Virus record (IMG/VR): IMGVR_UViG_3300010885_057925
Location: 64,001 to 128,000 of that record
Reading direction: 5' to 3' (one strand)
Source: a virus
Length of the DNA stretch: 64,000 bases
The notes under the pieces were generated by a model. That model made no database searches. It was not told the DNA's origin and was given only the letters and a program-made list of their open reading frames with translations. The position numbers were made by a program, and so were the translations under genes. Shown here piece after piece: positions 42,352 to 58,330 of the stretch; position 1 is the first letter of the stretch, and every line of letters begins with the position of its first letter.

Positions 42352-42399
42352 GAAACTTTCCTCTTTCGAAAAATTAAGAAGAGAGAACCATAAGTAAAT

Positions 42400-43194
42400 T
42401 TAAGTACAGTGCTCTGTGTTGAGATAAGGGCAGTACTGGCAAGACTGTCGATTCTTAATCTTCGTTCCCTTTCTCATGCCTGCAATCGTGTTAGAAACAA
42501 GCTTGTTAGCTTTCTGCATCGCGACAGGACCGACCGAGACCGTGAAGAGCTCAACACACTTCCCGGCCTTAGCTCCCTTCTTAAGGAGCACGTAACCGCA
42601 CTTGATGTAACGAGCTCCATCGAAAAGTTCCCTGTGCTTATTCATGAGATACGACTTGTAGAGAGCAACCTGAGCCAGAGTCAGCGGGTCCTGCTTCTTC
42701 TCAACTCTCCAACCGCCTGCCCCGGCCGTCTTCCAGTCAAGAACCCAAAGATCGTAGCCGCCCTTCTCTCGTGGAACTTTGATTATGCAGTCAACGAAAC
42801 CCTTGAAGTATGCATCTCGATCTTCGATCGATTCGTAGAGCGCTTCCTCCGCAGACACCGTCTCCCAACCAGGGAAAGTCTCATCGAGCCATGCAGGAAC
42901 TTCTTCCAGCGCATTTTTTGCCCAAGTTGCCCACTTCTCAGCTTCTGGAAATCCCTTAGAGTCCCAGGCTGCAACAATATCCATGAGGCAGCGCTCGATG
43001 TCCATCACACGAGTCTTCAGGTATCCTTCACATGCTGAGTGAACTGCAGTTCCAAAATCTAAGTGCTCGCTTGGCTTGTCGAGGTTGATCTTCTTGATCT
43101 GCTGAAGGTAGTGACGGTACGGACACTCGTTCCAGCTTCTGACCTCAGAGTAAGAAACGTGAGCTTTTCCTGTCGGAAGAAGATTATCAGACAA
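42400..43194 (-). CDS. PD-(D/E)XK nuclease, Cas4/AddB-like with Fe-S cysteines
   Basis: SYS..CPY, FGTAVH, E..KGFVD..LDWKT, C-terminal CQYCPY..C; TTG at 43194 preceded by AAGGAGG. Confidence 0.85.
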   Translation of the reverse strand: MSDNLLPTGKAHVSYSEVRSWNECPYRHYLQQIKKINLDKPSEHLDFGTAVHSACEGYLKTRVMDIERCLMDIVAAWDSKGFPEAEKWATWAKNALEEVPAWLDETFPGWETVSAEEALYESIEDRDAYFKGFVDCIIKVPREKGGYDLWVLDWKTAGAGGWRVEKKQDPLTLAQVALYKSYLMNKHRELFDGARYIKCGYVLLKKGAKAGKCVELFTVSVGPVAMQKANKLVSNTIAGMRKGTKIKNRQSCQYCPYLNTEHCT

Positions 43195-44284
43195 GTTCCC
43201 TCCTTGACTTCTGCAGAGCAGATCCAACTACCTGATGCATATCGTAATACTTGTACTCAGCCAATCGACCTCCGAATAGAACGTTAGACTCAAGTTCTGC
43301 AACTTCTTTGTACTTTCGATAAATTTCAGTGTTCTTTTCATCACCGATCGGATAATACGGAGTTGCGCTACGATCCCAAGCGATTGGATACTCCTTGGTG
43401 TAGATCGTGCTCTTCAGCTTGTCCAACCGTTCTGGTGTGAAATGCTTATGTTCGGTGATTCTGGTGTAAGGGACTGATGCATCACCGTAGTTTACGATGG
43501 CATTTCCTTGAAAGTCTCCCTCTCTCTTCTCTTCCTCAAAGCGAAGAGATCGATACTCTAGATCACCGAACTTGTAATCGAAAAACTCATCAATCTTTCC
43601 AGTGTACACAACTCTCTTCGCCATCGAATTCCACTTCTCGCGATTGCTGAAGTAGTTTTCTCCCAGCGCGATTTCGCAACCATTCAACATATTGTTGAAG
43701 ATGTTTGTGTATCCTTCTTTTGGAATTCCCTGGTACGTATCGTTGAAGTAGTTATCATCGAATGTCATCCTGATGGGAAGACGTTTGATAATTGAAGCCG
43801 GCAAGTCTTTTGGATCACGCATCCACTGCTTGGTAGTGTATCCACGAATGAAAATATCGTAGATTTCAGGCCCGACTTGAGAAAGAATCCAGTCTTCTAG
43901 ATTACTTGGATTCTCGCGTGGAACTCGAACAGTCTCGAGCTTTCTCATAGCTTCGTCAGGAGTATTGACTCCCCATACCTGATGAAGCGTCATCAAATTA
44001 ATTGGGAATGAGTACATCCTGTTTCTATGCTTGACCTTGGGTCGAAGCACAAAATTGTTGAACTCGGTGAATTGATTCATAAACTTCCAAATTCTTTCAT
44101 CGGAAGTATGAAAGATGTGCGGGCCGTACTTATGAACGTCGATTCCATCACGACGCTCGCTATAGCAGTTTCCACCGATGTGCTCTCTTCTGTCGATTAG
44201 AAGAACGCTCTTACCCTTGCTTCGAGCTTCATGAGCAAATACACTGCCGAAAAGACCAGCACCAATAATGAGGTAGTCGTACAT
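43187..44284 (-). CDS. glf: UDP-galactopyranose mutase
   Basis: IIGAGLFG, HIGGNCY, HKYGPHIFHT, YFNDTYQGIP, GRLAEYKYYDMHQ. Confidence 0.97.
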   Translation of the reverse strand: MYDYLIIGAGLFGSVFAHEARSKGKSVLLIDRREHIGGNCYSERRDGIDVHKYGPHIFHTSDERIWKFMNQFTEFNNFVLRPKVKHRNRMYSFPINLMTLHQVWGVNTPDEAMRKLETVRVPRENPSNLEDWILSQVGPEIYDIFIRGYTTKQWMRDPKDLPASIIKRLPIRMTFDDNYFNDTYQGIPKEGYTNIFNNMLNGCEIALGENYFSNREKWNSMAKRVVYTGKIDEFFDYKFGDLEYRSLRFEEEKREGDFQGNAIVNYGDASVPYTRITEHKHFTPERLDKLKSTIYTKEYPIAWDRSATPYYPIGDEKNTEIYRKYKEVAELESNVLFGGRLAEYKYYDMHQVVGSALQKSRRELV

Positions 44285-44289
44285 GGCTT

Positions 44290-44318
44290 ATATTAAACCA
44301 CGTACGACTACTTTTCAA
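44290..44318 (-). promoter_or_regulatory. Sigma70-type promoter for glf, probably leaderless
   Basis: TTGAAA-17 nt-TAATAT, 5 nt before ATG. Confidence 0.6.
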
Positions 44319-44326
44319 TCTTAATT

Positions 44327-45208
44327 CTACTTGAAGCTGTTTAGATAATCCTCAAGCTTTACCTTCGGCTCCCAACCAAGCTCATTGAAAGCTCGATTAT
44401 TGTTTGCTAGAGTCTCTCTTGTCTCACCGACTCGCTCAGAAACGTAGAGGCGATCTCCACCGATCATAGCTGCAAGATCATTTATCGAGTAATTTTTACC
44501 AGTTCCGATGTTGACCGGTCCGACCACCCACGGCTTTTCAGCTGCGATTAAATTGGCCTTGACAGCATCACTTATATGTGTGAAATCTCTTCGCTGATTT
44601 CCGTCACCCACAATTGTCATGGTATCTCCAGCAGCTTTCTGTCTCATGAAAAGACCCATAACAGGAGCGTACTCACCCTTTAGCGGCTCGCGTGGACCGT
44701 AAACATTGAAGTAGCGAAGAGAGATGGTCGAAAGCCCGTACAGCTTCGTGTAGAGCTCACAAACTTCCTCACCCTGCCACTTAGAGAGCGAATAAGGAGT
44801 TGCGCAACCCTTCGGAGCACTTTCGATAAACGGAGGCTTGGACGCGTGACCGTAGTAAGAAGACGAAGCTGAGTAGACAACGCGCTTCACACCCGCTAGA
44901 CGACTGCAATCAAGAACTCTCTGCGTCCCTAGCACGTTGACAGAGAAGCACTCTGATGGGTTGTTAACCGTTGGCTGGATTCTGGACCTAGCAGCGAGAT
45001 GGAAAACAACGTCAACACCATCGTACAAGTCCTGGTGAAGGTTGCGAATATCAGCGTCTATGTTTGTTGCAGCATCGTTCCAGTAGAACTGGTCATTTTG
45101 TGGCGCCGACTTATCATCAACGCAGATGACTTCATCACCACGAGCAATCAGAGCATCAACAACATGGGAGCCGATGAACCCAGCACCGCCAGTCACAAGA
45201 TAACGCAT
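44327..45208 (-). CDS. NAD-dependent nucleotide-sugar epimerase/dehydratase (extended SDR)
   Basis: TGGAGFIGSH, YSASSS, YSLSK (YxxxK), RYFNVYGP, RDFTH. Confidence 0.92.
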   Translation of the reverse strand: MRYLVTGGAGFIGSHVVDALIARGDEVICVDDKSAPQNDQFYWNDAATNIDADIRNLHQDLYDGVDVVFHLAARSRIQPTVNNPSECFSVNVLGTQRVLDCSRLAGVKRVVYSASSSYYGHASKPPFIESAPKGCATPYSLSKWQGEEVCELYTKLYGLSTISLRYFNVYGPREPLKGEYAPVMGLFMRQKAAGDTMTIVGDGNQRRDFTHISDAVKANLIAAEKPWVVGPVNIGTGKNYSINDLAAMIGGDRLYVSERVGETRETLANNNRAFNELGWEPKVKLEDYLNSFK

Positions 45209-46179
45209 CAAGAGCTCCTCTTGCTGACAGCGCGACCGATCTGCTTCTCCCAGTCTCTGTCGTTCGGGCTTCGAATCTCAAGATTCTTCGACCAAGCTGC
45301 TTGCATCACAGTCGGCTTGACGTCGTAATAACGAGCAACGCTCATGAGAGCGTTGATATCCTTAGGGAAGCAATGACCGCCGAAGCCACGCACATAACGA
45401 CCATCATGAGTTGGGACAGGACCTGGAACGGACCAGTGAGACTCACCCAAACGACGATCAAACTTAGCGTACTCAACAACCTTGTCGTAATCGATGTTGA
45501 GACCATCTGCGTCAAGAGCTTCACAAATCTGTGAGATCTCATTAGCAAACGATACCTTGACTGCCAGCATACAATTGGTCACGTACTTGACCATCTCGGC
45601 AGTTGTAGAGCTCGTCTTAACGATTGTAACTTTCGGGAAAGCTCGCTGGAATACGTTCTTGACAGTGTTGATATAGGGCCGTGGGCCACCCAGAACGATG
45701 CGATTCTGCTCTCGCATGTCATTCACAGCATTCGCTTCGGTCAGAAACTCTGGGTTGAAGACGACGTGGAGGCCTTTGTCGTTGAACTTCTTATTCCAGT
45801 TTTCTGTCGATCCGGGCGGAACAGTGGACTTCACCACAGCGACTCTCTCAGGAGAGTCAGAGGTGTAAGAAGAGTTAGCAATCTCTGCCAAAACCCCCTC
45901 AACAATCGAAGTATCTGCCGCTCCGTCCTCATACATCGGAGTTGGTACGCAAACAAAGAACACGCCAGAGAAACCAGAAGTTCCCTCACATTCTGTCACG
46001 AACTCTGCTACAGAGCCCGGGTAGATAACTTCGTCAGAGTTATTCCTTCGGAAGCCATTCATTCCACCGTTAGCCAGCTTTCCCGCCTTGTCATACACGA
46101 AGACTCTCTCGCCGCGTTCGGAAAATACCGTCGTGAGGCTGCCACCGACGAAACCTTGACCGATAACACCAATGCTCAT
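45208..46179 (-). CDS. ugd: UDP-glucose/GDP-mannose dehydrogenase family (short form)
   Basis: GQGFVG, CVPTP, KSTVPPG, NPEFL, AEMVKY, GFGGHCFPKD; ATG 46179 with AAGGAG SD. Confidence 0.88.
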   Translation of the reverse strand: MSIGVIGQGFVGGSLTTVFSERGERVFVYDKAGKLANGGMNGFRRNNSDEVIYPGSVAEFVTECEGTSGFSGVFFVCVPTPMYEDGAADTSIVEGVLAEIANSSYTSDSPERVAVVKSTVPPGSTENWNKKFNDKGLHVVFNPEFLTEANAVNDMREQNRIVLGGPRPYINTVKNVFQRAFPKVTIVKTSSTTAEMVKYVTNCMLAVKVSFANEISQICEALDADGLNIDYDKVVEYAKFDRRLGESHWSVPGPVPTHDGRYVRGFGGHCFPKDINALMSVARYYDVKPTVMQAAWSKNLEIRSPNDRDWEKQIGRAVSKRSS

Positions 46180-46195
46180 TTTCTCTCCTTGATTG

Positions 46196-46224
46196 ATTAT
46201 CACATAAGAGAGTTACATTTTCAA
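46196..46224 (-). promoter_or_regulatory. Sigma70-type promoter for ugd
   Basis: TTGAAA-17 nt-GATAAT with TG extension, followed by SD AAGGAG. Confidence 0.6.
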
Positions 46225-46629
46225 ATCTAAAATTGAACTGGCTATCTTTTTCTTTAGATCGGTGAGGTTGTAGTCGTGATTTCTGCTGCAGAAATAGACG
46301 GGTTTTCCGAGTTCATCGCCTGTGAATCTCTTATTGACATAATCGGAGCCAAGTATTCTGACATCGAAACTTACTCTCGCAAGCAATCTGCGAAGATCTT
46401 CTTCAGTGTTGTAATAGACGACTTCGTCAACATGCTTCAAGGCTCGAAGTATCTCGGCTCTTTCTTCCCAAGACTGAACTGGCTTACACTTACTTGGTCT
46501 ATCGATAGTTGGGTCATCCTGCAATGCTACGATCAGACTTTCGCAGATTGCTTTTGACTCCCGAAACATTCGAATGTATCCAGGGTGGATTAGGTCGAAT
46601 GACCCAGCGATTAGTCCCGATTTATACAA
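46213..46629 (-). CDS. Cytidylyltransferase, TagD/RfaE-like
   Basis: [10 protein letters not shown] (HxGH-like), [19 protein letters not shown]. Confidence 0.85.
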
Positions 46630-47594
46630 GACGACTCCAGCTGTCTGTAATCCTCTTCATACATAAGCCGGGCCAATTCTTTGAACGTAGTTCTTGGTGA
46701 CCATCCCAATTTTTCTCTTGCTTTAGAGAAATCTCCTTCGAGCCATGGAACTTCATGAGGACGCTTAAGACGATCATCTATCAAAAGATGCTTATCGACG
46801 TCAAGGCTGGCAATCTGGAAGACCTCGTCTAAGAATTCTCTGACCGTGTGAGTCTCACCTGTCGCAATGACGTAATCATCGGGCTTGTCCTGTTGAAGCA
46901 TCAACCACATCGCCTCAACGTAGTCTTTCGCGTAACCCCAGTCGCGGAGCGCGTCAAGATTGCCGAGAGCGATCTTGTCTTGGAGACCGAGCTTGATTCG
47001 TGCAGCTGCAAGCGTGATCTTGCGAGTGACAAATGTTTCACCACGACGAGGGCTCTCATGATTGAAAAGAATGCCTGAAGATGCGTGAATGCCGTAGCCC
47101 TCGCGGTAGTTGCGAGTGAGACCGTGAGCGAAGACCTTGGCGCAGGCGTACGGAGACGCTGGCATTAGACGTGTCTCCTCATTCTGAGGGTGCTCGGGAT
47201 TATCACCGTACATCTCAGACGAAGATGCTTGATAGAACCTGCAATCAGGTTGCATGGTCCTGATGCACTCAAGAAGTCGAAGAGGTCCCATCGCTACCGA
47301 GTCCACAGTTTCCTCAGGCACTTCAAACGAGACTCTAACATGCGACTGCGCCGCGAGGTTGTAGACCTCATCAAACTTCTGGTTTGCGAAGAGACGGTAG
47401 AATGCTCCAGCATCGTTCATAGAGCCGTAAACAAGCTGAAAGTTTTTGTGAGCAAGAAGATGATCGATTCTGTCAGTTGCGAGAAGAGAGGTTCTCCGCT
47501 TCATGCCAACGACTTTGTATCCCTTTTCTAGCAAAAGCTCGATGAGGTACGACCCGTCTTGGCCTGTGCATCCAGTCACAAGAGCTGTTTTCAT
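46611..47594 (-). CDS. gmd: GDP-mannose 4,6-dehydratase
   Basis: [62 protein letters not shown]. Confidence 0.97.
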
Positions 47595-48532
47595 ATCTTA
47601 ATCTTAACCCCTCGAACGTCAGGGTATCTATCTACGAATGATTTTATTGTCTCTCTAAGGCCATCACGAAGCGGAGTGTACTCATCCGTCCAACCAAGAG
47701 ATCTAAGCTTCTTGTTGGATGATGGCTTCTCATACTGACCGTCAGGCTTTGAAGAGTCAAACTTCACATGTCCCTCAAATCCGATTTCCTCTCCGATCAT
47801 CAGAGAAAGATGTTCGATAGAGACCCAATCAGGATTTCCAATGTTGACGGGCTCATCACTGTCATAGTTTTCTGCTAGCCACAGGATGATCTTTGCTGCA
47901 TCTCTAGCAAAAGTGAACTCTCGAATTGGACGTCCAGATCCCCAAACAATGACCTCATTCCTGCCTTCAAGCATCGCCTCGTGGAACTTGCGAATGAGAG
48001 CTGGTATGACATGACCACTGTTGAGATCGTAGTTGTCATTGATGCCATAGAGATTGTTCGGAATGACTGAGATGAAGTTGCATCCGAACTGTTGACGGTA
48101 AGCTCTGCTCTGAACCTCAAGCATCCTCTTTGCGTATGCATACCCAAAATTCGAATGATGCGGTGGGCCCATGTGAAGCTGATCCTCGGTGAGCGGGTAC
48201 TTCACATAAGGGGCATCTGGGTAGATGCAAGTCGAAAGCACGGAGACAAGCTTCAGGTTATTCTCTCTGCAAGCGTCCAGCACATTCATGTTCATCTTGA
48301 CGTTGTCGTCAAAAAAGTCTGCGACATAGTCTGTGTTTGCCTTCACACCGCCGACCTTTGCCGCGCAGTGAATGACTGTGTCTACACGACCATCTTCAAG
48401 AGTGAGAATAGCGTGGTTTGACTCAGTCAGATCGCAATCCCTTGAATTGAGACCAATTGATCCTGTTGACAGAGCAAGAATCTCACTGCCCAAGAGCCCT
48501 GACACTCCAGTTATGAGATTCACGGGCTCCAT
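47591..48532 (-). CDS. fcl: GDP-L-fucose synthase
   Basis: [49 protein letters not shown]; adjacent to gmd. Start may be GTG 48523. Confidence 0.93.
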
Positions 48533-49341
48533 AGATGAAACTCATTCTTAGAAATTAGATCTGCAACCTCTTCGGAAATCGGGCAGTTTCCAGTTATCCC
48601 ACGCTCAATGTAGGCCGGCTGCTTGTAGACAACCTTGGGATAATGCCCCTTCTCTGGACCTCTGATTCCAAGCTCTGCTTTTATTCCCACCATGTGTAGC
48701 TTCATCTGTTCAAGAGCCATGAGGCACAAAGGCTCAGCCAGCCTGAAATTAAACCCGACGTGGACGTGATTGTACTTTCCGTCTTGACCCTGCTCGCAGA
48801 TAGATCGTATCTTCTTAGCGTCAAGTTTGGAGTTTTTTGGAGTGCAGATCATTCCACCTTCAAACGTTGAGATGTTCTTCGTCTTATAGAAAGAGAACGT
48901 TCCAACGTCCGACATCATTCCAGCGAATCTTCCGTGGTGATCTTGCGATGCAAATCCCTGAGCAGTGTCTTCTATAACAATGAGATCGTGCTTTCTAGCT
49001 ATCTCATTGATCTCATCCATCTGGCAGATTCTGCCGTAAAGATGCACTGGGATAATTGCGCGAGTCCTGGGAGTGATTGCTGCTTCAATCTTCTTCGGAT
49101 CAATTAAGAGCGTTTTCGGATCTATATCAACAAATACCGGAGTTCCACCTGCGATCAAGATTGCGTTGCTTGTCGCGATGAACGTGAACGGAGTGGTGAT
49201 GATCTCATCGCCAGGCTTCAAGTCAAGAGACCATGTACATGCGATCAATGCGCTTGTGCCGTTGTTGACCGCAACGCAATCCTGCAGATCAAATTCATTT
49301 CTAACGTAGTTCTCAAAAGCTTCTCTTACAAATGCAGGCAA
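48520..49341 (-). CDS. DegT/DnrJ/EryC1/StrS PLP-dependent sugar aminotransferase (compact)
   Basis: NNGTSAL, TPFTFIAT, PVHLYG, IEDTAQ, FSFYKTKNISTFEGG with PLP lysine. Confidence 0.9.
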   Translation of the reverse strand: MPAFVREAFENYVRNEFDLQDCVAVNNGTSALIACTWSLDLKPGDEIITTPFTFIATSNAILIAGGTPVFVDIDPKTLLIDPKKIEAAITPRTRAIIPVHLYGRICQMDEINEIARKHDLIVIEDTAQGFASQDHHGRFAGMMSDVGTFSFYKTKNISTFEGGMICTPKNSKLDAKKIRSICEQGQDGKYNHVHVGFNFRLAEPLCLMALEQMKLHMVGIKAELGIRGPEKGHYPKVVYKQPAYIERGITGNCPISEEVADLISKNEFHLWSP

Positions 49342-49355
49342 GTTCTCTCTCTTTT

Positions 49356-50087
49356 TTAGATTTTAGAAGAACTCGCGCTATTGTACAAAAACTTTTCGTA
49401 AATCTCTCTCAACCCCTGAGGGCATTCATCGATCGACGCGTTGCCGTTCTGACACTTTCTAAAAAAATCTAACACGATGCTTGAGCTGACGTTTATGAGA
49501 TCTTTGTTTCTCGAGAACCCTATCATATTAAATCCCGACTTGTCATCTTTTATGACGGTGAAAGGAAGAACGTCAGATCTGACGCTTGTACCCATTCCTA
49601 TCATAGAAAATCCGCCAATTTTGACGTTCTGATGAACGCAACTATTCATGCCAATATTTGCGAGCTTTCCAATGTAGCAATGACCTCCGATCTGAGCTCC
49701 ATTAGAGATGATGACAAAATCATCGAGAATGACGTCATGACCAACGTTTATGTGATTCATGATGTAGCAACCGTTTCCTATCTTAGTCTCTAGTCCAGTT
49801 GGCGAGTGGACGGTGCAATATTCTCTCAACGTGTTTTGCGAACCAATGATTACTTTTCCGTCTTTGTTTCGGCGAGATCTTGCATGCTGCGGCTCTTGAC
49901 CGATACAGACGCCATGAGAAATCACGTTGCCGTCTCCAATTACAACGTCATTCTCTATGATAACGTTTCTTCCGATTCTGTTGTTGGAACCGATTGTTAT
50001 GTTACCTTCAATGTAGCAATTTCCCTCTATGATACAATTTTCGCCCAACACTACGTTTTTTCCCACAAACGAAGTAGGGTGCGTCAT
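49356..50087 (-). CDS. LpxA-like hexapeptide-repeat acyltransferase
   Basis: Hexapeptide repeats; IGQEPQH, IGSQNTLREYCTVH, VGHD, VHQ..IGGFSMIG closely follow the LpxA pattern. Confidence 0.85.
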   Translation of the reverse strand: MTHPTSFVGKNVVLGENCIIEGNCYIEGNITIGSNNRIGRNVIIENDVVIGDGNVISHGVCIGQEPQHARSRRNKDGKVIIGSQNTLREYCTVHSPTGLETKIGNGCYIMNHINVGHDVILDDFVIISNGAQIGGHCYIGKLANIGMNSCVHQNVKIGGFSMIGMGTSVRSDVLPFTVIKDDKSGFNMIGFSRNKDLINVSSSIVLDFFRKCQNGNASIDECPQGLREIYEKFLYNSASSSKI

Positions 50088-50758
50088 ACTGTGAAACCGC
50101 CGTCAATCACGATGTCAGAGCCATTCATAAAATCAGACTTGTCAACCAAGAACTGAACAGCATCAACAACTTCATTGATCTCAGCGAGCCTCTTCATTGG
50201 AGTTCTTTCTGAAATCTTTGACTTCTGAACTTGAGACAGATCTTTTGACATTTCAGTCTCCATGTATCCGGGAGACACAACGTTCGCCCTTATCCCTCTT
50301 GATCCCATCTCGACAGCGATAGTTTTAGCAAAAGAATTTATGGATGACTTGCTCATAGAGTAAGCCGCCAATCCCTTAAAGTGCTTTTTTGCACAAATGG
50401 AAGATACAAAGATGACATGTCCTTTCTTCTTCTGGCGAAGTCTGTGTTGCATCCACAGTTTGGTCATCATTGCAGGAGCCAAAACGTTAACTTTGTGAAT
50501 TCTTAAATACGAATCGAGAGTCTCAACAATCGCTAGATTGCTGTTTGTTATGGCTGCGTTGTGTACCAGAACGTCAACATCAGAAAGCAGATCTCCCAAT
50601 TTGTCTATCGAACCGAGGTCTTCTAGGTCAAATGAAACATGTTCCCATGAAAATTCAGAAGAGCTTCTAGAAAGACCAACTACTTCGTGATCGATTTTAA
50701 GACGCTCGCAGATGCTATAGCCGAGACCCTTTGAGTCTCCAGTAATCAAAACTTTCAT
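50084..50758 (-). CDS. SDR oxidoreductase, FabG-like ketoreductase
   Basis: TGDSKGLG, HNAA, YSMSK, NVVSPGYMETEM, TPMKR, IDGG. Confidence 0.9.
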   Translation of the reverse strand: MKVLITGDSKGLGYSICERLKIDHEVVGLSRSSSEFSWEHVSFDLEDLGSIDKLGDLLSDVDVLVHNAAITNSNLAIVETLDSYLRIHKVNVLAPAMMTKLWMQHRLRQKKKGHVIFVSSICAKKHFKGLAAYSMSKSSINSFAKTIAVEMGSRGIRANVVSPGYMETEMSKDLSQVQKSKISERTPMKRLAEINEVVDAVQFLVDKSDFMNGSDIVIDGGFTV

Positions 50759-51654
50759 TATGACCTCTTTTTCTTTCCAGAATCAGACAATTTAATTTGT
50801 GTGACTTTCTCTATCAAGATTGGTCTCTGGTGCTTTGGAAAAGTATTTGCTATTATCTCTGAGAGGCGGACTTTCTCTATCGATCCCACATACTCAAGCT
50901 TGATAGAGTTTCCAATGACTGGGGCTTTTATAGAAATACAAGCGCAATCTTCGATGCCATCAATTTCGAGAATTTTTGCCTCTACTTCTTCTAGAGACAC
51001 AAGAGCGCCAGCAATGTTTAATTTTGCGTCGACTCTTCCCACGAACTTGTATCTGTCTCCATCAATCTTCCATGAATCTTTTAGAACAATTCCATTAGCT
51101 ACGAGAGAACCATCTTCTAAAAAAGAAAAATTTTTGAACTTTTCCCTTGGATATCCCTCGATACCGTCTGATGAGCTACAGATATCACCAGTTTCAGTAG
51201 AAGCGTAGACGTGAGTGATTCTAGCAGAAGAGAATAGCTTCTTACAGCAATCAAGAGAATACTGCGTCGCGTACTCTCCTCCTAAAGTTACTTGATTCAC
51301 ACCGTTAAATGATCTTCCAGACCTTAGAAGCTTTTGAGCCTGTGATGGAGTCATGCAAATATCGGTGCATTTCTCAACTTCGTCAAGATTTTCAAAACTT
51401 AAATGCTTTACTCTTACATTGCTTTTAATCGCATGAAGAATCACGCTAAGTGAAGCCCACGTTCCCAGAGAGTAAAAAAAACCTATTTGAGAGTTTGGGT
51501 GATAGTCTCTTTTCGTTTTCTTTTCGAGCTCGACAGTGACATCTTTCAGAACTGTTTTTCTTTCTCCGGTAGTTCCGGATGTCTGAATCGCAATCGATTT
51601 ATTTTCTTTTATGGATCTCTCTATGCTCTCATAGTACGATTCAAAATCATTCAT
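50758..51654 (-). CDS. AMP-dependent acyl ligase (compact adenylation enzyme)
   Basis: QTSGTTGERK, GGE, YASTETG, FVGRVD, SDSGK core motifs. Confidence 0.85.
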   Translation of the reverse strand: MNDFESYYESIERSIKENKSIAIQTSGTTGERKTVLKDVTVELEKKTKRDYHPNSQIGFFYSLGTWASLSVILHAIKSNVRVKHLSFENLDEVEKCTDICMTPSQAQKLLRSGRSFNGVNQVTLGGEYATQYSLDCCKKLFSSARITHVYASTETGDICSSSDGIEGYPREKFKNFSFLEDGSLVANGIVLKDSWKIDGDRYKFVGRVDAKLNIAGALVSLEEVEAKILEIDGIEDCACISIKAPVIGNSIKLEYVGSIEKVRLSEIIANTFPKHQRPILIEKVTQIKLSDSGKKKRS

Positions 51655-51892
51655 TTGGCAACATCACGCCAACAAAGATATCCAGCAGATGCTGGACTGT
51701 CTTTATCTGATGCCACTGGATCGGTAAATCCAGAACGTTGATAGAGAACTTATGATCAACATCGATCACAATTTGCGCGTAATCGATGCTGTCAATTCCA
51801 ACTTCATCAAAAACTGTGTCAAGCTCAACTTGAATGCTCGGATTGACTCTTCGGATTGCCTCTACAATAGAATCAAAAACTTCTTCTTTCAT
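51647..51892 (-). CDS. Acyl carrier protein
   Basis: Small acidic protein with GIDSID phosphopantetheine serine motif; ATG 51892 preferred over the track start at 51940. Confidence 0.85.
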   Translation of the reverse strand: MKEEVFDSIVEAIRRVNPSIQVELDTVFDEVGIDSIDYAQIVIDVDHKFSINVLDLPIQWHQIKTVQHLLDIFVGVMLPNE

Positions 51893-51911
51893 GAGCTTAA
51901 CCTTTTCAGCA

Positions 51912-52763
51912 TTATAAATCGTGAATGCTCGAAAGTTCAATGATGCTGTCGTTCAAATGATACTGCTTGACTCTCTCGCTTGTTGACATGAATCTTTCAG
52001 TCAAACGATCTCCACGGCGAGGAGCGATAATCTCTTTTGCTCTGTCTGGATACAGATCATTTGCAACGTCTTCCATCAGACGAAGATGACCGCTGTTTAC
52101 TATGAATCGACCTGGCTCAGATCTAAGCATCGCAAAAATGATAAGTCCAGCCGACTCTTCGACCGAGATGAAGTGACGCTCGCAAGTCGGAGCAACTTTG
52201 ATAGGCTCGCTCTCTAGGACTTTGTCCCAGATCTCAAATACGTTGCCCTGCGTCTCGACGACATTAAAGAATCTTGCCACGGAACCACCGCTGTTCATGG
52301 TCATTCTCTCTGCGATCAGCTTGCTAGCTCCGTAAACGATCTCTGGGTTTGCAGACTTGCAAGTAGAAGTCAGAATCATCCTACAGCCATCCGGCTTATT
52401 GTCCAGTAAGTTCTTAGTTCCGATTGTGTTGATCGAAAGTGTCATCCAAGTCTCGTGTTCTCCGACAGGAGCATGCTTCGCTCCCGCGATATTCACGATG
52501 ATGGTTGGCTTGTAGTCGTTCAGAACTTGCTTCACTCTGTCAAAATCAGTTATGTCCATCTTGGTGTGATCACCCTCGATGTCAGTCGACAGAAAATTGA
52601 CATTATGGCGCTTGAACTTTTCTACCAGCACAGTGCCGATGCTGCCATTAGCTCCCGTGATCAGAACTCTCTCGTTCAAATTTTCTAATCTGTTCTCAAC
52701 GCTTACGAGCTGCTGAAGCTCTTTCCTGCCCAGAACTTTCTCGAGTGAATACTTGTCCATCAT
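51912..52763 (-). CDS. Nucleotide-sugar 4,6-dehydratase, CapD/PglF-like catalytic domain
   Basis: LITGANGSIG, AGAKH, STCKSANP..YGASKLIAE, RFFNV, RHFIS, RRGDRLTE. Confidence 0.8.
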   Translation of the reverse strand: MMDKYSLEKVLGRKELQQLVSVENRLENLNERVLITGANGSIGTVLVEKFKRHNVNFLSTDIEGDHTKMDITDFDRVKQVLNDYKPTIIVNIAGAKHAPVGEHETWMTLSINTIGTKNLLDNKPDGCRMILTSTCKSANPEIVYGASKLIAERMTMNSGGSVARFFNVVETQGNVFEIWDKVLESEPIKVAPTCERHFISVEESAGLIIFAMLRSEPGRFIVNSGHLRLMEDVANDLYPDRAKEIIAPRRGDRLTERFMSTSERVKQYHLNDSIIELSSIHDL

Positions 52764-52819
52764 TTCTAGAACTCTCCTTTAATTTTTCTATCGAAAGTTT
52801 TCGTTCAAAAACCGTGATC

Positions 52820-53287
52820 TCAAGTTCGATCAAACGCTCTTTTCACCATGACAATATTATCATGACAGATTCCGTGAAAATTAGTTTTTTCGTACAACTT
52901 TTTCGACCAGAAAGCTGATGTATCTGAAGGCTGGTTCACTACGCCTCCTGAGACAAAAACTTCCGGGAAAGTCCAGGGAATAGACTTGGATGTCATAGTC
53001 AACTTATCGTTCTCATGCCAGAACCAGTTTAAACCAGATTGATTCAAAAAAGAGATGCACTCTAGATTCTTTGCATGAACCCACAGCTTGCTTGACCTCT
53101 CAAGGAGAAATCTCTCATCTATTCTATTCTCAGGAAAATCATGACCTAGCTTGAGAGATCCATCGCTTAACCAAAGATCTATCTCAACGTCGAAATCAAG
53201 AGACAGAGCTAGATCTATTTGATCAGGAAGGTTCTCACGTTCTTTCAGCTTGCCTTCTAAATTTCCTCTGTGAGATATGAATATCAC
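52820..53287 (-). CDS. Glycerophosphodiester phosphodiesterase-like protein
   Basis: ISHRGN..EN..DVEIDLW..LGHD..WVHAKN. Confidence 0.75.
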   Translation of the reverse strand: MIFISHRGNLEGKLKERENLPDQIDLALSLDFDVEIDLWLSDGSLKLGHDFPENRIDERFLLERSSKLWVHAKNLECISFLNQSGLNWFWHENDKLTMTSKSIPWTFPEVFVSGGVVNQPSDTSAFWSKKLYEKTNFHGICHDNIVMVKRAFDRT

Positions 53288-53997
53288 TTTGCGATCCTGA
53301 GGTATCGCTGCAGATCTTCTGGGGTCCCTATCCCATGCATTTTATGAACGTAGAAAGGAATGACGCTCTTGCTGTCTCCTATCATTTCATTGTAGACGGG
53401 AGCAATGTAGAACTCGTTATTAGTTCTGATATTCTTTTCTATCATGTCTTTTGCAGATCTAACGAAATCGGATCCCTTTCTGTACCAGTAAATTCCGCAA
53501 GTAGCTACATCAGATATTGGATTTTTTTCAGCAACCTCTGACACAAAACCGTCATCCACTTTAACAAAAGACCACTTCGGATGAACCGCGTTAAACGTAA
53601 AAACGATTCCATCGACCGACGTCATCTTTTTTACTGTCATGAAATTTTCCCTGCTAAACTCGATTATTTGATCTGAGTTTGCGATCAAGAGGTCATCGTC
53701 GTTGTTAATAAACTCTTCTGCTAGAAGCGCCGTGCAGGCTGCACCCTCTGTAAGAGAATCTACCTGAACTATTCTGCAGTTGCCGTTAGTCACTCTCTTT
53801 AAGAGAGAATGAATTCCATCGAACTTAGCAAGATGCTCTTTTCTAACCAGAAATATGTACTCAGCGTCAAAACCTAGATTTTCAATGACAGCCTGTATCA
53901 TGGGTCTACCATCTACGTCTATCAGGGGCTTCGGAAACGTGTACCCTTCAATCGAAAACCTTGAACCCTCACCCGCCATCGGAATTAGAACTTTCAT
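53284..53997 (-). CDS. Nucleotidyltransferase / GT-A fold sugar-phosphate transferase
   Basis: IPMAGEGSRF..PKPLIDV, TEGAACT, ANSDQ, EKNPIS, NNEFYIAPVYN, GTPEDL. Confidence 0.85.
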   Translation of the reverse strand: MKVLIPMAGEGSRFSIEGYTFPKPLIDVDGRPMIQAVIENLGFDAEYIFLVRKEHLAKFDGIHSLLKRVTNGNCRIVQVDSLTEGAACTALLAEEFINNDDDLLIANSDQIIEFSRENFMTVKKMTSVDGIVFTFNAVHPKWSFVKVDDGFVSEVAEKNPISDVATCGIYWYRKGSDFVRSAKDMIEKNIRTNNEFYIAPVYNEMIGDSKSVIPFYVHKMHGIGTPEDLQRYLRIAK

Positions 53998-54622
53998 CTA
54001 TAAACTCCAAGTAATTTCTAAGATTCACATCTTCGAACCCCTTAACTGCCCAGAGGTATCTGGCAAGAGATTTCTTTGCAGATTCTATTCCCTTGTCAGA
54101 ATCTTCTACACAAAGCGTCTGCTCTGGATCTGAGTTGAGCTCTTTGATTGCGTAATCATAACAATCCGGGAACGGCTTGTTTCTTTTGACGTCTTCGTTG
54201 GTAACGATTCTGTCAAAATACTCGATTTGACCAGTCGAGTTAAGCATCTTCTCTGCAGTTTGTCTGATCGAGTTGGTCACGCAAGCAATTTTTACTTTAT
54301 TTTCTTTTAGAAATTGAAGAAGTTCAATTTTCTTTGGGTCAATCTCTGCGTTTCTTTCGATTATGTCGATCGTGTAATCTTGCTTCAGCTTCCAAATCAT
54401 TTCTGATTTTTCTCGATCTACTCCAAGAATCTCAAGCTTAACTTTGGTAGGGAGTCCGTTGAATTTTGATTCGTGATCCTCTCTTGATATCGTTACTCCA
54501 GCAACTTCGTAGAGAGCTTGATTCAGTGATTTGTAATGCCACTCACACGCATCGACCAAAACTCCATCAAGATCAAATAAAACGCAAGACACGTGCTTGC
54601 CGCTTTTTCCAAAATTTCTCAA
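53969..54622 (-). CDS. HAD-family phosphatase
   Basis: FDLDGVL, VTNS, KPFPD, EDSDKG motifs. Confidence 0.9.
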   Translation of the reverse strand: MRNFGKSGKHVSCVLFDLDGVLVDACEWHYKSLNQALYEVAGVTISREDHESKFNGLPTKVKLEILGVDREKSEMIWKLKQDYTIDIIERNAEIDPKKIELLQFLKENKVKIACVTNSIRQTAEKMLNSTGQIEYFDRIVTNEDVKRNKPFPDCYDYAIKELNSDPEQTLCVEDSDKGIESAKKSLARYLWAVKGFEDVNLRNYLEFIDESSNSDGG

Positions 54623-54663
54623 ACTTACCCCTCTTTTATCGTTAGAAGATTAGACTGTCGTTG

Positions 54664-55311
54664 CTATCTCAAAGTAAACACTTTGTCCTCGACCCATGGT
54701 TTATCAAACGTTCTTCTCAAAAGAACAGTGTAGTCGAATCTACTAACTTTTGATCTGAAACTTGACATATGGTATCGTAGCATCGTCTCAGGATGACAAG
54801 GAACTCCCGCCGCTGAGTACTCGTTTATCTTATCATAAAGAGCGCAGTAGTGATTCATATTCTCATATGACGAGAAACAAAGCATGTCAAAAAGACCGCC
54901 TCTCCAGTCTCCTCCCTGAGGTATCCAGAGAGAACTCGGATCGAATTCGTTGATCTTCAGCGGACTGCAATACTTCACGTCGAACCTAGTCTTTAGGACA
55001 ACATCGTAATCTCCTTCGATTATGTCAAAAGACTTTTTGATGTTCTTCCACATCGCAAACACTGCAGCGGGATCAGTCTCAGGCGGCTTATTGTAGAAGC
55101 AAGAGTCTGATATCTTGCTCACGTTCTGATCTTTTGAATCTATGATTGTCTTTTTTGGATTGAAAAGCTTCACTGCTTCAGCGACTCTCTCTTCTTCATA
55201 AGCATGAAAGAATATGTCGCAGTCGTTGTAATTTAGTATGTTGCTTTCTAGAGACGGATAGCATTCATCAAAATTTCTAACGTCCCCGCTCAGTATTATC
55301 GCAACTTTCAT
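54664..55311 (-). CDS. Putative glycosyltransferase-like protein
   Basis: MKVAIILSGDVR..DIFFH..YDVVLKTRFD..D..HPET pattern seen in glycan-locus proteins. Confidence 0.6.
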   Translation of the reverse strand: MKVAIILSGDVRNFDECYPSLESNILNYNDCDIFFHAYEEERVAEAVKLFNPKKTIIDSKDQNVSKISDSCFYNKPPETDPAAVFAMWKNIKKSFDIIEGDYDVVLKTRFDVKYCSPLKINEFDPSSLWIPQGGDWRGGLFDMLCFSSYENMNHYCALYDKINEYSAAGVPCHPETMLRYHMSSFRSKVSRFDYTVLLRRTFDKPWVEDKVFTLR

Positions 55312-56132
55312 AGCTTGTTCTCGAACTTAGGCATAAGATCAAAGAAAAGCTCCATGTTTTCATTAGCTTCAAACGGTCTAATGGAGTGATATTCGCTCAG
55401 CTCTCCAGATCTAACAGCTTGCATCAACTCATCGCACACTCTGATTCTGCCGATCGATCTGTCGATTCTTCTAGAACCCCATTCGTTGTGAAAGTTAGTG
55501 ACAAGTTCTATCTTAGCTCCGGGTTCATCTCTTAACTTTTTTCTAATCAAAGAGCTAGAATAAGCTTCGTCGATGCCCCAGAGACTCATACCTTCTCTAA
55601 AGTTTGGAAGATTGACTCTCCAATCGTAGATCTTATGAAGCTCATCAGACCAGTTTTCGTTGATTTCGTGAATTGACTTGAATTGAGAACCAAAACCCAC
55701 GTGATGTGAGGATGGAAAATCAGCCCCAGGATGATTATATCCGTCGGAGAAACCTACAACGTATTTTCCATCTCTCAAAAACGCCTTGATCATTTTAAAG
55801 AATCTATCACCCAAAGGTATCTGATCTATTCCCGAGATCATACATCTGTCATTTTCAAATCTAGAAGCACCGTAGTACGCGCCCCAAGTGCACGTCCAAT
55901 CTCTCTGCTCAATCAATATGTCTGGAGATCTTTCTAAAAGAAAGATTTCTCCATGGTCGTCCGATAGCTTCTTTAGTTTTCTGAGCTCGTCGAACTCTTC
56001 TTGATTACCAGAGAAAAATAGCGTTGGGACAGTGTTAAACTTCTCATGATATACTTTCGATACAAAATTCCAGAAGCCTAAGTAATCAGAATTGTTTGTC
56101 AACGAAAAGATGACTCTATCAACTATTCTCAT
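55308..56132 (-). CDS. Hypothetical protein, possible GT-A glycosyltransferase
   Basis: Y..FW..VSK, GIDQIPL, WGIDE, RRIDR, H..RP; glycan cluster context. Confidence 0.5.
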   Translation of the reverse strand: MRIVDRVIFSLTNNSDYLGFWNFVSKVYHEKFNTVPTLFFSGNQEEFDELRKLKKLSDDHGEIFLLERSPDILIEQRDWTCTWGAYYGASRFENDRCMISGIDQIPLGDRFFKMIKAFLRDGKYVVGFSDGYNHPGADFPSSHHVGFGSQFKSIHEINENWSDELHKIYDWRVNLPNFREGMSLWGIDEAYSSSLIRKKLRDEPGAKIELVTNFHNEWGSRRIDRSIGRIRVCDELMQAVRSGELSEYHSIRPFEANENMELFFDLMPKFENKL

Positions 56133-56814
56133 TTTTATCTCGCAAAGAATGGATTCTTCTCATCATCTCTGGATTCATATAATGAAAAGTTATCTTTTCG
56201 TCGGTTCCGAATGAATCGATATTTCCAGTGCAAAACTTTTCTGTGTGAATGAACCTGCACTCTCCTGAGTTTCTGAACCAGAATCCTATCGATATGTCGC
56301 TGTTATAAGCTGTTGGGAAATCTTTGGTATCTAGAAGGTATTTCTTGATGGCAGTAAAACACTCTCTAGTCATCACAAACCCTGCTCCTCCGCTGGGATA
56401 TGTCACCGGTAAGCTGCAGTCTCTACCTCTCAAACTTTGAAGGGGCATTCCTTGCTCAAGAGCATGATTCTCAGAGTAGTCATAGAAAACGTGGCCAAGA
56501 CAAGCTTTTTCATTGGGAGAAATTTTAAGCGACTTGATCTCTGCTTTTAACGAGCTAATATCAACGTAGGTGTCATCATCGCTGATCATAATGAAATCAA
56601 AGTCATCAAAATTCTCTAGAGACATCACGAAATAAGCTAACTTAAAAGGAACATACACGTAACCGGTAGGAAGAGTAGAGAAAGAAACCATATCGTTTCC
56701 TTCGCTGTCACCCACGAAGATGTATGCATCAGAATTTTTAGCGTAAGTTTCTCTAATCGCATCTTGAAGTGATCTGTTCTTATCACATGTTATGATTGCA
56801 TTTAGAATCTTCAA
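56119..56814 (-). CDS. Fringe/GT31-like glycosyltransferase
   Basis: DDDTYV, YPSGGAGFVM, SDISIGFW, ITFHY hallmark motifs. Confidence 0.8.
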   Translation of the reverse strand: MKILNAIITCDKNRSLQDAIRETYAKNSDAYIFVGDSEGNDMVSFSTLPTGYVYVPFKLAYFVMSLENFDDFDFIMISDDDTYVDISSLKAEIKSLKISPNEKACLGHVFYDYSENHALEQGMPLQSLRGRDCSLPVTYPSGGAGFVMTRECFTAIKKYLLDTKDFPTAYNSDISIGFWFRNSGECRFIHTEKFCTGNIDSFGTDEKITFHYMNPEMMRRIHSLRDKNENS

Positions 56815-57683
56815 ATTGCACGTCCTTCCGTCAAGATGTATAAGAGATGCTTAGATCTTACATCATAGCTATGATAATTTTCAGACCTTGCGCGACCAAG
56901 ATGAGCTATTTTCTCTCTTTCAGCATCGTTTCTGGTGAAATGATCTATTAGAGCCATGAGCTCGTCTGCGTTATGATAGACGACAATCTCCTCATTAATC
57001 TTGAAGAGTCTTTCGATATTAGGCGTGTAATTTGTGAGCAGCATCGCTCCAGAACCTGTAGCCTCAAAAGTTCTGAAGTTCACGTCGTCAGCGATGTTTA
57101 TGTTGAAAGCTATCTTGTAGCTTGACAGAGCTCGCACCATATCGTTTCCAATCACGAATATGTCGCGCTTCAAATTAAACTTTGACGATATCAGATTAAG
57201 CCAATTCTCTCTGTTGCCGATGAGAGAGCCGCAAAACCCAACGTCAACGTTTCTTTCAACGCTAGAGTCAGGCTTTATCAAATCAGAAGGATACCCATTC
57301 GGAAACCAGACAGCTGAGCTGACCAAACCTCTGAAGTGATCGATGTGCTGTATGTTGGACATCAAGAGAATGTCGAACTTGTGCTTGAGGCAATGAGCTT
57401 GATGATTCTGAAGAGAGCAATGAGAATCGATGCTCCAGAACAATTTCTTTCCCTTGAACTTTGAGATGTCTGGATGCCACCCAGAGTCATAATTCTCAAG
57501 GCTTAGCAGGGCATCACAATCTCTGGATATCTCGTCGAAAGGGACGGAAAAATTATTGTAATTCAACCCCCAAACGACAGCTTCATGACCGGCTCGCTCA
57601 ATTCCTCGCTTAAGGCACAGAGCCTCTCTGAACTCTCTATTTCCTTCGTTTCTTCCGCGTTCCTGTATCAGTAAGATCTTCAT
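56811..57683 (-). CDS. CgeB-like glycosyltransferase (GT-B)
   Basis: WSIDSH, DVGFCGS..R, YKIAFN..DVNFRTFEATGSGAMLLT, HSYDVR. Confidence 0.8.
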   Translation of the reverse strand: MKILLIQERGRNEGNREFREALCLKRGIERAGHEAVVWGLNYNNFSVPFDEISRDCDALLSLENYDSGWHPDISKFKGKKLFWSIDSHCSLQNHQAHCLKHKFDILLMSNIQHIDHFRGLVSSAVWFPNGYPSDLIKPDSSVERNVDVGFCGSLIGNRENWLNLISSKFNLKRDIFVIGNDMVRALSSYKIAFNINIADDVNFRTFEATGSGAMLLTNYTPNIERLFKINEEIVVYHNADELMALIDHFTRNDAEREKIAHLGRARSENYHSYDVRSKHLLYILTEGRAI

Positions 57684-58330
57684 ATGACTGCTCTCAACGC
57701 TGCTTTTTGCTCTTCAACAGCCACATCATTTTCATCGAATGCTAGACCCACAAACTCATCGCTGACGCGTTTGGTCGGAAATTGAATCTTTTGAAAGAAC
57801 TCATCATGAACAATCGAGAACTGAGCGACCTTTGGATAGATAATTTCGCGCAAGAAATTTTGATCAACTTGCCAAAAATCTCCCTTCACGTACTCACGAA
57901 TTAGATCGCTCATGTTACTGAGAAGCGGAGCTCTAGCTCCCCACATTCCTCCTAAAATCTCTGTAGCGTGGTGAGGGTGATCACGCATGATATGAAACAT
58001 CGCGCTGCTTCCGAGCCACTGCTTCACTGCAGCTACTTCACGAGCAGTTATCCTGCTATCGCAGTCTCGACTGATCATCACGTCAACGTCAGGGTCTGAG
58101 GCTGCCTCGAATCTCCAGAACATGCCCGTCCAGTCGCCGGGCTTCTTCATATCGATTACGTGTGCTCCACGATCATGAAGACCGCTGATCGTTTCAGAAG
58201 GAGTATTAGTACCTACATAAAAGCGGGCCTGCCATCCAGGATATAGTTCACTCACAAGCTCAGCGTTCCTAAGAGCTCCGATGTTATACTTTGGGTTATC
58301 ACCCCATAAAGAGTAAGAAACTACTCTCAT
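57680..58330 (-). CDS. Conserved GT-A-like protein
   Basis: SYSLWG..KY..GA..N, MFWRF, SRDCDSR (DxD), FHIMRDHPHH, ILGGMWG, DQNFL. Confidence 0.65.
   Translation of the reverse strand: MRVVSYSLWGDNPKYNIGALRNAELVSELYPGWQARFYVGTNTPSETISGLHDRGAHVIDMKKPGDWTGMFWRFEAASDPDVDVMISRDCDSRITAREVAAVKQWLGSSAMFHIMRDHPHHATEILGGMWGARAPLLSNMSDLIREYVKGDFWQVDQNFLREIIYPKVAQFSIVHDEFFQKIQFPTKRVSDEFVGLAFDENDVAVEEQKAALRAVI

Follow-up and report, generated by a model that had tools for sequence, protein, structure and literature searches.

A gene block predicted to make an N-acylated amino sugar with a private acyl carrier protein in an uncultured tailed phage

The stretch of DNA considered here (hereafter, the window) comprises 64,000 nucleotides, bases 64001-128000 of the linear IMG/VR virus record IMGVR_UViG_3300010885_057925, which is 171.5 kb long with a G+C content of 50% and about 51% complete as estimated by CheckV. 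Nearly all the genes of the window lie on the minus strand, and the large terminase subunit, the portal protein and a baseplate wedge protein encoded in it provide the phage context. The terminase shares 40-43% identity with its counterparts in Microcystis phage Mel-JY01 and Flavobacterium phage immuto and, judged by this distance and by its own context, the record is taken to be a fragment of an uncultured tailed phage far from any isolate. The subject of this report is a block of six co-directional open reading frames (ORFs) at 48520-52763, situated in an island of nucleotide-sugar enzymes and glycosyltransferases of ~20 kb (about 39950-59916). The block encodes, in order, a short extended short-chain dehydrogenase/reductase (SDR), an acyl carrier protein (ACP), a miniature adenylate-forming ligase, a classical SDR, an LpxA-like acyltransferase of the left-handed beta-helix (LbH) fold and a short DegT-type aminotransferase (Table 1). 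A preliminary description made from the sequence had listed the same six genes in this order, and its family assignments are significant, with the corrections given below. The ACP and ligase genes overlap by 8 nucleotides, the ligase and classical SDR genes by 1 and the SDR and LpxA-like genes by 4; these genes are translationally coupled.

Table 1. Positions in the window of the six-gene block and of neighbouring genes, with the matches behind their assignment.
Feature	Position	Strand	Length (aa)	Match
Short extended SDR, Polysacc_synt_2 (PglF/PseB/CapD) superfamily	51912-52763	-	283	PF02719 E 2.9e-30
ACP	51647-51892 (open frame to TTG at 51940)	-		PF00550 21.5 bits (cut-off 20.8)
Mini ANL adenylate-forming enzyme (ligase)	50758-51654	-	298	PF00501 27.7 bits, E 1.5e-6
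Classical SDR	50084-50758	-	224	PF13561 (adh_short_C2) E 2e-38; FabG model E 1e-40
LpxA-like LbH hexapeptide transferase	49356-50087	-	243	NCBIfam LpxA E 1e-51
Short-form DegT/DnrJ/EryC1 sugar aminotransferase, pyridoxal phosphate (PLP)-dependent	48520-49341	-	273	PF01041 E 8.8e-73
GDP-fucose-synthase-like SDR (Fcl)	47591-48532	-		Fcl model 251 bits
GDP-mannose 4,6-dehydratase (Gmd)	46611-47594	-		PF16363 E 1.8e-128
Sugar-1-phosphate nucleotidyltransferase	53284-53997	-		Pfam and NCBIfam matches
HAD beta-phosphoglucomutase-family protein	53969-54622	-		Pfam and NCBIfam matches
ORF between nucleotidyltransferase and first SDR	52820-53287		155	No Pfam match; phrog_34507 (function unknown) E 4e-22
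Cytidylyltransferase-like protein	46213-46629		138	Best models RfaE domain II and glycerol-3-phosphate cytidylyltransferase
Nucleotide-sugar dehydrogenase	45208-46203		331	Positions 1-295 of a 413-position model
PD-(D/E)XK nuclease	42400-43227

The ACP, ligase and classical SDR genes form a unit that recurs in other genomes and is referred to here as the cassette. In the carrier protein, an AAAGG motif precedes the ATG at 51892, which is probably the true start and would give a protein of 81 residues with an isoelectric point of 4.35. NCBIfam ACP models match it with E 2e-6 and the phosphopantetheine serine lies in the motif GIDSIDY; Asp34, Ser35 and Trp60 are invariant across nine cassette ACPs, the Asp-Ser pair being the predicted pantetheinylation site.

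The ligase scores just under the Pfam cut-off of 29.9 because its N-terminal third is absent: the protein starts ~25 residues ahead of the P-loop (TSGTTGERK), without the usual first ~170 residues. It retains the motif YASTETG, the Asp and Gly-Arg hinge and the C-terminal catalytic Lys (SGKKKR), and NCBIfam adenylation and acyl-CoA synthetase models match both its halves. The homologue family spans 295-374 aa, and the ANL core motifs (P-loop A3, A5 YxxTE, A7 Asp, A8 Gly-Arg hinge, A10 Lys) are invariant in 18 of its members. An AlphaFold2 model of the protein has a pLDDT of 92.9 and a pTM of 0.88, its best solved folds being DltA, a carrier-protein ligase (TMq 0.76), and MenE (0.75). Since all the catalytic motifs are kept in the homologues and the modelled fold is confident and compact, the ligase is a genuine miniaturised adenylating enzyme and not a fragment, and it is the predicted loader of the ACP. 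A split ligase with the missing N-terminal part encoded by a separate gene was considered and ruled out, as the ACP gene abuts the ligase gene in all the loci and the model is compact. Orthology with TmlQ/MupQ, the ligases of the polyketide priming cassettes discussed below, is not supported; identity to TmlQ is 18%, the profile-profile probability of 99.4% is that of any ANL pair, and no specific NCBIfam model is shared. The first ~125 residues of TmlQ have no counterpart in the phage protein. No family matching the mini-ligase was found in PHROGs, where phage ACP and FabG-like families are present, and BFVD contains only about six viral proteins of the ANL fold.

The second enzyme of the cassette had been described as a FabG-like reductase, which is correct in that it is a classical SDR matched by the FabG model, although it proves closer to MupS and TmlS than to FabG. 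The Ser-Tyr-Lys catalytic residues are retained in the alignment. Among solved structures, MupS (4yxf, E 1e-29) ranks first, above every FabG structure, and the best match among 72,556 plasmids is TmlS (36% identity over the full length, E 2e-40), encoded on pTML1 of Pseudoalteromonas SANK 73390 in the order ligase-SDR-ACP (TmlQ-TmlS-TacpD). A maximum-likelihood tree separates the cassette SDRs and TmlS from E. coli FabG and the acetoacetyl-CoA reductases with a branch support of 94/99. According to PMC10098928 (citing Walker et al. 2020), MupQ, MupS and MacpD produce the 3-hydroxypropionyl-ACP starter of mupirocin from malonyl-CoA, and MupS and TmlS reduce the CoA-thioester end of ACP-tethered malonyl- or succinyl-CoA. 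The phage SDR is predicted to reduce an ACP-bound acyl group to a hydroxy-acyl group, for which there are two candidate routes. Loading of a 3-oxo acid followed by its reduction, as had been proposed, remains one option; the kinship with MupS and TmlS allows, instead, a CoA-bound dicarboxylate to be tethered and reduced at its thioester end, as by MupQ/MupS. Either route would yield a short 3-hydroxy-type acyl-ACP suited to the LpxA-like enzyme, and the candidate acyl groups would be a 3-hydroxyacyl group from a 3-oxo acid and a 3-hydroxypropanoyl or 4-hydroxybutanoyl group from malonyl- or succinyl-CoA.

LpxA is the best-matching family for the transferase, and its best solved relatives are all LpxA enzymes (E 4e-32). 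The protein aligns with E. coli LpxA along the entire beta-helix, its C-terminal helical domain being shortened. In terms of the residue roles of E. coli LpxA, His117 is the equivalent of the catalytic E. coli His125, and equivalents of His144, His160/Gln161, Gln73, Asn198 and Arg204 are also kept. Met165 sits at the 'hydrocarbon ruler' position of E. coli Gly173 and, by analogy with the hydrocarbon rulers of LpxA, presumably corresponds to a chain of ten carbons or fewer. Homologues 41-53% identical to the transferase are encoded directly after ACP-ligase-SDR in three marine contigs (L002, L029 and L030 in our numbering of loci). The protein is predicted, from its family and gene context, to be an acyl-ACP:amino-sugar N-acyltransferase, and its genetic coupling to the cassette in four loci suggests that, like LpxA, it may take an (R)-3-hydroxyacyl-ACP as donor. 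A modelled complex of the transferase trimer with the ACP reached a median score of 0.10 and is not used as evidence.

The two outer genes of the block are the candidates for supply of the acceptor. The first SDR had been called a CapD/PglF-like dehydratase, and its membership of the Polysacc_synt_2 superfamily is significant, but the catalytic Asp is replaced by Cys and the protein falls into a separate subfamily. Where PseB and PglF have STDKA, it has STCKSANP...YGASK, with Tyr-x3-Lys kept, and the PseB model gives 65 bits against a cut-off of 408. The motif STCK[AS] is found in 99 of the 122 closest representatives (from the best 150 matches in a library of 1.8 billion, those with 240 aa or more), and canonical Asp forms appear only lower down the list of matches. 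Members with the Thr-Cys-Lys motif are ~255-300 aa long and several are encoded in phage-like contigs. The first SDR is thus assigned to a distinct Thr-Cys-Lys subfamily and is at most a putative dehydratase; the Cys could serve as an acid/base in epimerisation or dehydration. Decay of the gene by mutation to Cys is ruled out, Cys being the rule in the subfamily. This candidate keto-sugar maker is the most probable source of a substrate for the DegT enzyme.

Identification of the aminotransferase is confirmed by 246 bits against a cut-off of 19.8. The match covers only positions 27-235 of the 360 in the profile, and the protein is shorter by ~30 residues at the N-terminus and has an incomplete small domain, full-length members of the family having ~360-400 aa. 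Across 27 members the PLP lysine (in SFYKTKN) and at least 100 other columns do not vary. The short form makes up a very large family that is common in marine metagenomes. Among the clusters listed, the best 120 have lengths of 266-286 aa and identities of 74-93%, and all are metagenomic, on contigs of up to 183 kb; the contigs examined that carry the short form are marine Tara scaffolds. A truncated or frameshifted pseudogene is ruled out, as the next gene starts inside the end of the DegT gene with an intact N-terminus and the short form is conserved. The family profile gives 188 bits for perosamine synthase, 180 for QdtB and 172 for WbpE, all within 16 bits, scores too close to tell C4 from C3 amination. 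Of the earlier suggestion of a 4-amino sugar made by dehydratase and DegT, the sugar aminotransferase is supported; C4 is not distinguishable from C3, and the Thr-Asp-Lys motif is absent. In contig L026, the gene for a mini-DegT (73% identity) has that for a Thr-Cys-Lys SDR (52% identity) immediately after it, these being counterparts of the two genes that flank the acyl genes in the window; the mini-DegT genes of L026 and L022 both have neighbours of the SDR dehydratase type. In L002, a 76% identical mini-DegT stands beside a Gfo/Idh/MocA protein whose second-best model is UDP-N-acetylglucosamine (UDP-GlcNAc) 3-dehydrogenase, and the Gfo/Idh/MocA-DegT pairing recurs in L030 together with the cassette and the LpxA-like gene. 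No Gfo/Idh/MocA 3-dehydrogenase was found in the whole phage record at its ~51% completeness.

As a side observation, the short DegT (in the window and in L002, L022, L023 and L026-L028) marks a phage group whose glycan island is hypervariable, its anchor genes being those for a PDDEXK nuclease and a pair of GT4 glycosyltransferases. This group is apparently abundant and uncultured.

Homologues of the mini-ligase are rare. Of 185,579 prokaryote species, pattern scans recovered a locus in 15, every one of them metagenome-assembled, from ~10 phyla. A profile-based scan of IMG/VR recovered two contigs with a homologue, L018 (359 kb) and L019 (340 kb); a peptide-pattern scan of the same database, based on the ligase sequence by itself, gave no match. 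No homologue was found in 50,697 GenBank phage records, which bears out the earlier remark that such a module is unusual for a phage. More copies are present on metagenome contigs. In all 19 other loci for which DNA was at hand (those of the 15 bacterial species, the IMG/VR contigs and marine/metagenome assemblies), an SDR homologue immediately follows the ligase gene, and the arrangement is therefore not a matter of chance. The ACP gene lies upstream in at least 10 of the 19, and a DegT gene is present in at least 10; with few exceptions, the cassette occurs in a glycan locus next to genes for a DegT and an acyltransferase.

An acyltransferase gene adjoins the cassette in every well-annotated locus, and its family varies. 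The order ACP-ligase-SDR-LpxA-like is shared by the window, L002, L029 and L030; a WbbJ/WcaF-like acyltransferase takes the place in L001 and L018, a NeuD/PglB/VioB acyltransferase in L006 and a GNAT protein in the P0025 contig. The phage relatives L022 and L026, which are free of the cassette and share the PDDEXK nuclease, the two GT4 genes and the mini-DegT, carry short hexapeptide transferases of non-LpxA type. Such variation is the pattern expected of an acyl-donor module matched to different acceptors, and an LpxA-type enzyme, from the acyl-ACP-dependent branch, would fit as the partner of the module in this phage lineage. L018 has the order LbH-ACP-ligase-SDR-DegT-methyltransferase-Gmd-Fcl, and L018 and L019 represent a second viral lineage; the arrangement looks like an N-acyl-perosamine-type route in a very large virus. 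On plasmid p3 of Azospirillum brasilense Sp7 (L021, 342222-345553), ACP-ligase-SDR and a 3-ketoacyl-ACP synthase III (KAS III) gene lie between pseI and a flagellin gene; the SDR is 33% and the ligase, of 398 aa, 29% identical to the phage proteins. A. brasilense being cultivable, this bacterial form of the cassette, associated with flagellin glycosylation, offers a convenient experimental stand-in.

The core idea of the preliminary description, in which an ACP is loaded by the ligase, its cargo processed by the SDR and passed by the LpxA-like enzyme to an amino sugar made by DegT, is supported by this comparative synteny, and we regard it as probable. The four central genes would constitute a self-contained acyl-donor and transfer unit and the two outer genes would supply the acceptor. 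The mini-ligase would activate a small carboxylic substrate with ATP and fix it as a thioester on the phosphopantetheine arm of the 81-residue ACP of the phage, an arm attached either by a host enzyme or by a phage transferase not seen. Reduction of the bound substrate by the MupS/TmlS-like SDR would give a short hydroxy-acyl group, most probably a 3-hydroxy one, and the LpxA-like trimer, by means of its conserved catalytic His, would move it from the ACP to the amino group of a nucleotide-activated amino sugar. The short DegT would form this amine from a keto-sugar, most probably provided by the Thr-Cys-Lys SDR, and the resulting N-(hydroxyacyl)amino sugar would then be used by the glycosyltransferases of the ~20 kb island.

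Several observations weigh against this scheme. The LpxA-like enzyme scores below the curated cut-offs of the LpxA models (175.4 bits against 226 for TIGR01852; 165.7 bits, E 1e-49, against 231 for NF003657), and it differs from E. coli LpxA at the UDP-GlcNAc-binding positions Lys76, His122, Asp74, Glu200 and Arg205. In the first SDR, the Asp used by PglF and PseB in dehydration is missing. Translational coupling links the DegT gene not to the acyl genes but to the Fcl and Gmd genes that follow (overlaps of 13 nucleotides for DegT/Fcl and 4 for Fcl/Gmd), and in the relatives near-identical DegT proteins have differing keto-sugar-forming neighbours, Gfo/Idh/MocA in L002 and an RmlB/LegB-like protein in L022, which makes the acceptor uncertain. 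MupQ-type chemistry is not established, the ligase not being specifically related to TmlQ. A phosphopantetheinyl transferase (PF01648), reported earlier as missing from the window, was found neither there nor in the whole 171.5 kb record at its ~51% completeness.

The alternatives to the proposed scheme concern the bond formed, the donor and the sugar. With the same donor module, the LpxA-like enzyme might O-acylate a sugar hydroxyl, the amine being N-acetylated by another enzyme, for instance of the host, or left free. O-acylation is possible because LpxA proper is an O-acyltransferase, acting on the 3-OH of UDP-GlcNAc; the closest solved relatives are all enzymes of this kind, and the catalytic His and several GlcNAc- or UDP-contacting residues are kept. 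We nevertheless consider it improbable, as no other acyltransferase that could cap the amine was detected by Pfam among the island ORFs and the cassette travels with DegT genes across the loci. The Leptospira system also speaks for N-acylation. Leptospira-type LpxA N-acylates UDP-GlcNAc3N made by GnnA and GnnB, the families of the Gfo/Idh/MocA oxidoreductase and DegT paired with the LpxA-like gene in L002 and L030; the window itself has no Gfo/Idh/MocA gene. In comparison with LpxA in general, the Leptospira type included, the phage enzyme shares the fold, the catalytic His and several substrate-binding residues, and differs in its scores, its shorter C-terminal helical domain, the lack of lpxC, lpxD or fabZ neighbours and its predicted donor, which would come from a private ACP and probably be short-chained.

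A reading in which the transferase is an ordinary acyl-CoA (acetyl-CoA) N-acetyltransferase, with the cassette making, for example, a hydroxy acid that is glycosylated or used elsewhere, has very little probability in our estimate. Most sugar N-acyltransferases of the hexapeptide fold use CoA donors, as do known members of the WbbJ/WcaF, NeuD and GNAT types that neighbour the cassette in other loci, and the sub-threshold LpxA scores also speak for it. Against it, in four marine loci the cassette has a directly coupled transferase of the acyl-ACP-dependent LpxA type, the cassette-free relatives have non-LpxA transferases, the SDR and transferase genes overlap, and the block contains no ketosynthase, thioesterase or condensation domain that could otherwise accept the acyl-ACP. 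The donor mechanism would be unchanged if the acceptor were GDP-perosamine, formed by the phage Gmd together with a DegT resembling perosamine synthase in a phage version of the N-acyl-perosamine pathway of V. cholerae O1, with the Thr-Cys-Lys SDR belonging to another sugar route. The best solved match to DegT in a single-sequence search is the GDP-perosamine synthase of Caulobacter (E 1.4e-48), the DegT, Fcl and Gmd genes are coupled, and the Gmd-Fcl pair adjoins the cassette and DegT in L018. This version is nonetheless rather unlikely: the profile does not separate perosamine synthase from the C3 enzymes QdtB and WbpE, Gmd-Fcl is a mobile pair that stands elsewhere, away from DegT, in L022, the mini-DegT adjoins a Thr-Cys-Lys SDR in L026 and Gfo/Idh/MocA in L002, and the LpxA-type residues of the transferase suggest a UDP-HexNAc-like acceptor. 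Gmd and Fcl are probably a separate GDP-fucose module, although they could supply the 4-keto-6-deoxy sugar for a perosamine-type route. In rough terms, the chances for the acceptor are about even for a route through the Thr-Cys-Lys SDR and DegT and clearly smaller for perosamine, the remainder falling to a 3-amino sugar or something else.

A more specific version of the proposed scheme, which we put forward only tentatively and think doubtful on present evidence, is that ACP, mini-ligase and SDR are the glycan counterpart of MupQ/MupS/MacpD. They would convert malonyl- or succinyl-CoA to 3-hydroxypropanoyl- or 4-hydroxybutanoyl-ACP, and would have been captured by abundant uncultured marine phages and fused to an LpxA-derived N-acyltransferase for decoration of the virion or the infected cell. 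The phage module has in common with MupQ/MupS/MacpD and TmlQ/TmlS/TacpD an adjoining ligase-SDR-ACP trio with SDRs that group with TmlS. A hydroxy-acyl-ACP output, described for the Mup set in PMC10098928, is predicted for the phage. The differences are that the phage ligase is shorter than TmlQ at the N-terminus and of low identity to it, and that the priming cassettes hand the acyl-ACP to a ketosynthase, whereas the phage module is predicted to hand it to a sugar acyltransferase.

The closest genetic precedent is provided by the tetronate genes of V. cholerae O1, wbeK-wbeO or rfbK-rfbO (VC0248-VC0252), where a dedicated ACP, an AMP-forming ligase, a reducing step and a hexapeptide-type acyltransferase likewise occur in a glycan locus beside Gmd and a DegT-type aminotransferase (PMC3441752). 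The proposed product is also of one kind, an N-(hydroxyacyl)amino sugar, perosamine being N-acylated in the O antigen of that organism. The roles of the tetronate genes were reportedly described by Morona and colleagues in 1995. An iron alcohol dehydrogenase and a LuxC/LuxE-like protein also serve in the cholera set; a Pfam scan of the island ORFs found neither family, and an SDR of MupS/TmlS type stands in their place. The phage ligase also differs from WbeL, which is full-length with 471 aa (PMC3441752); further differences are that the phage transferase is LpxA-like and that the genes are on a phage and not in a bacterium. Trios of ACP, 3-oxoacyl-ACP reductase and AMP-dependent synthetase occur in the flagellin glycosylation islands of Aeromonas group II and of Enterobacteriaceae (PMC7874193, PMC4875605). 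These islands, and that of A. brasilense Sp7 p3, resemble the phage locus in uniting the three families inside a protein-glycosylation locus; they differ in being bacterial, in having longer ligases and in the addition of LuxC/LuxE or KAS III, and their trios are annotated but unexplained. The literature examined yielded no phage ACP-dependent sugar acylation. Bacterial surface-sugar loci are known to contain machinery of this kind, as yet unsolved; in phages it is very rare. New here are its occurrence in a phage and the delimitation of the mini-ligase and MupS-like SDR as one cassette, as well as the joining of this cassette to an LpxA-derived transferase and the reduced size of the partner enzymes.

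Unusual N-acyl groups such as 3-hydroxybutanoyl, 3-hydroxypropanoyl, 4-hydroxybutanoyl and tetronoyl shape the antigenicity and the phage-receptor function of bacterial surfaces, and only for a minority is the genetic basis of the synthesis and attachment of the acid more than a guess. The present analysis defines a donor cassette of three genes that is compact, widely scattered and combined with interchangeable transferases, and links it by sequence to a biochemically solved polyketide priming cassette, which provides a concrete substrate hypothesis for four small soluble proteins. If the cassette does prove to be a glycan counterpart of the priming cassette, it would account genetically for the omega-hydroxyacyl amides of bacterial amino sugars and nonulosonic acids, an account that has long been missing. 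The locus also suggests that phages may vary the glycans they bear, or those of the cells they infect, by chemistry no less elaborate than that of the hosts. The 298 aa ligase, the 273 aa DegT and the Thr-Cys-Lys SDR are minimal scaffolds useful in enzymology.

Around the block, the G+C content is 40-43% at 50001-58000 against 50% for the record, which is consistent with later acquisition of the upstream half of the island, the acyl genes included. The sugar-1-phosphate nucleotidyltransferase and the HAD protein encoded there are possible sugar-supply genes for the six-gene pathway. Both of the cassette loci from Solirubrobacteraceae (L010 and L012) contain 44% identical counterparts of the nucleotidyltransferase and, in addition, distant homologues of the Thr-Cys-Lys SDR. 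The N-terminus of the 155 aa ORF (ISHRGN...HD) bears a tentative resemblance to a glycerophosphodiester-phosphodiesterase motif.

On the other side of the block, the cytidylyltransferase-like protein hints at a branch of the island for activated heptose or CDP-glycerol. The PD-(D/E)XK nuclease gene is an odd but conserved neighbour of sugar genes; it lies within the glycan island here, beside the GT4 pair also in the relatives L002 and L022, and directly after the LpxA-like gene in L029, where no GT4 pair was seen. Several enzymes of the island are short in comparison with their families, namely the nucleotide-sugar dehydrogenase, the ligase, DegT, the LpxA-like transferase and the classical SDR (331, 298, 273, 243 and 224 aa, respectively), a pattern that suggests systematic enzyme miniaturisation in this phage group.

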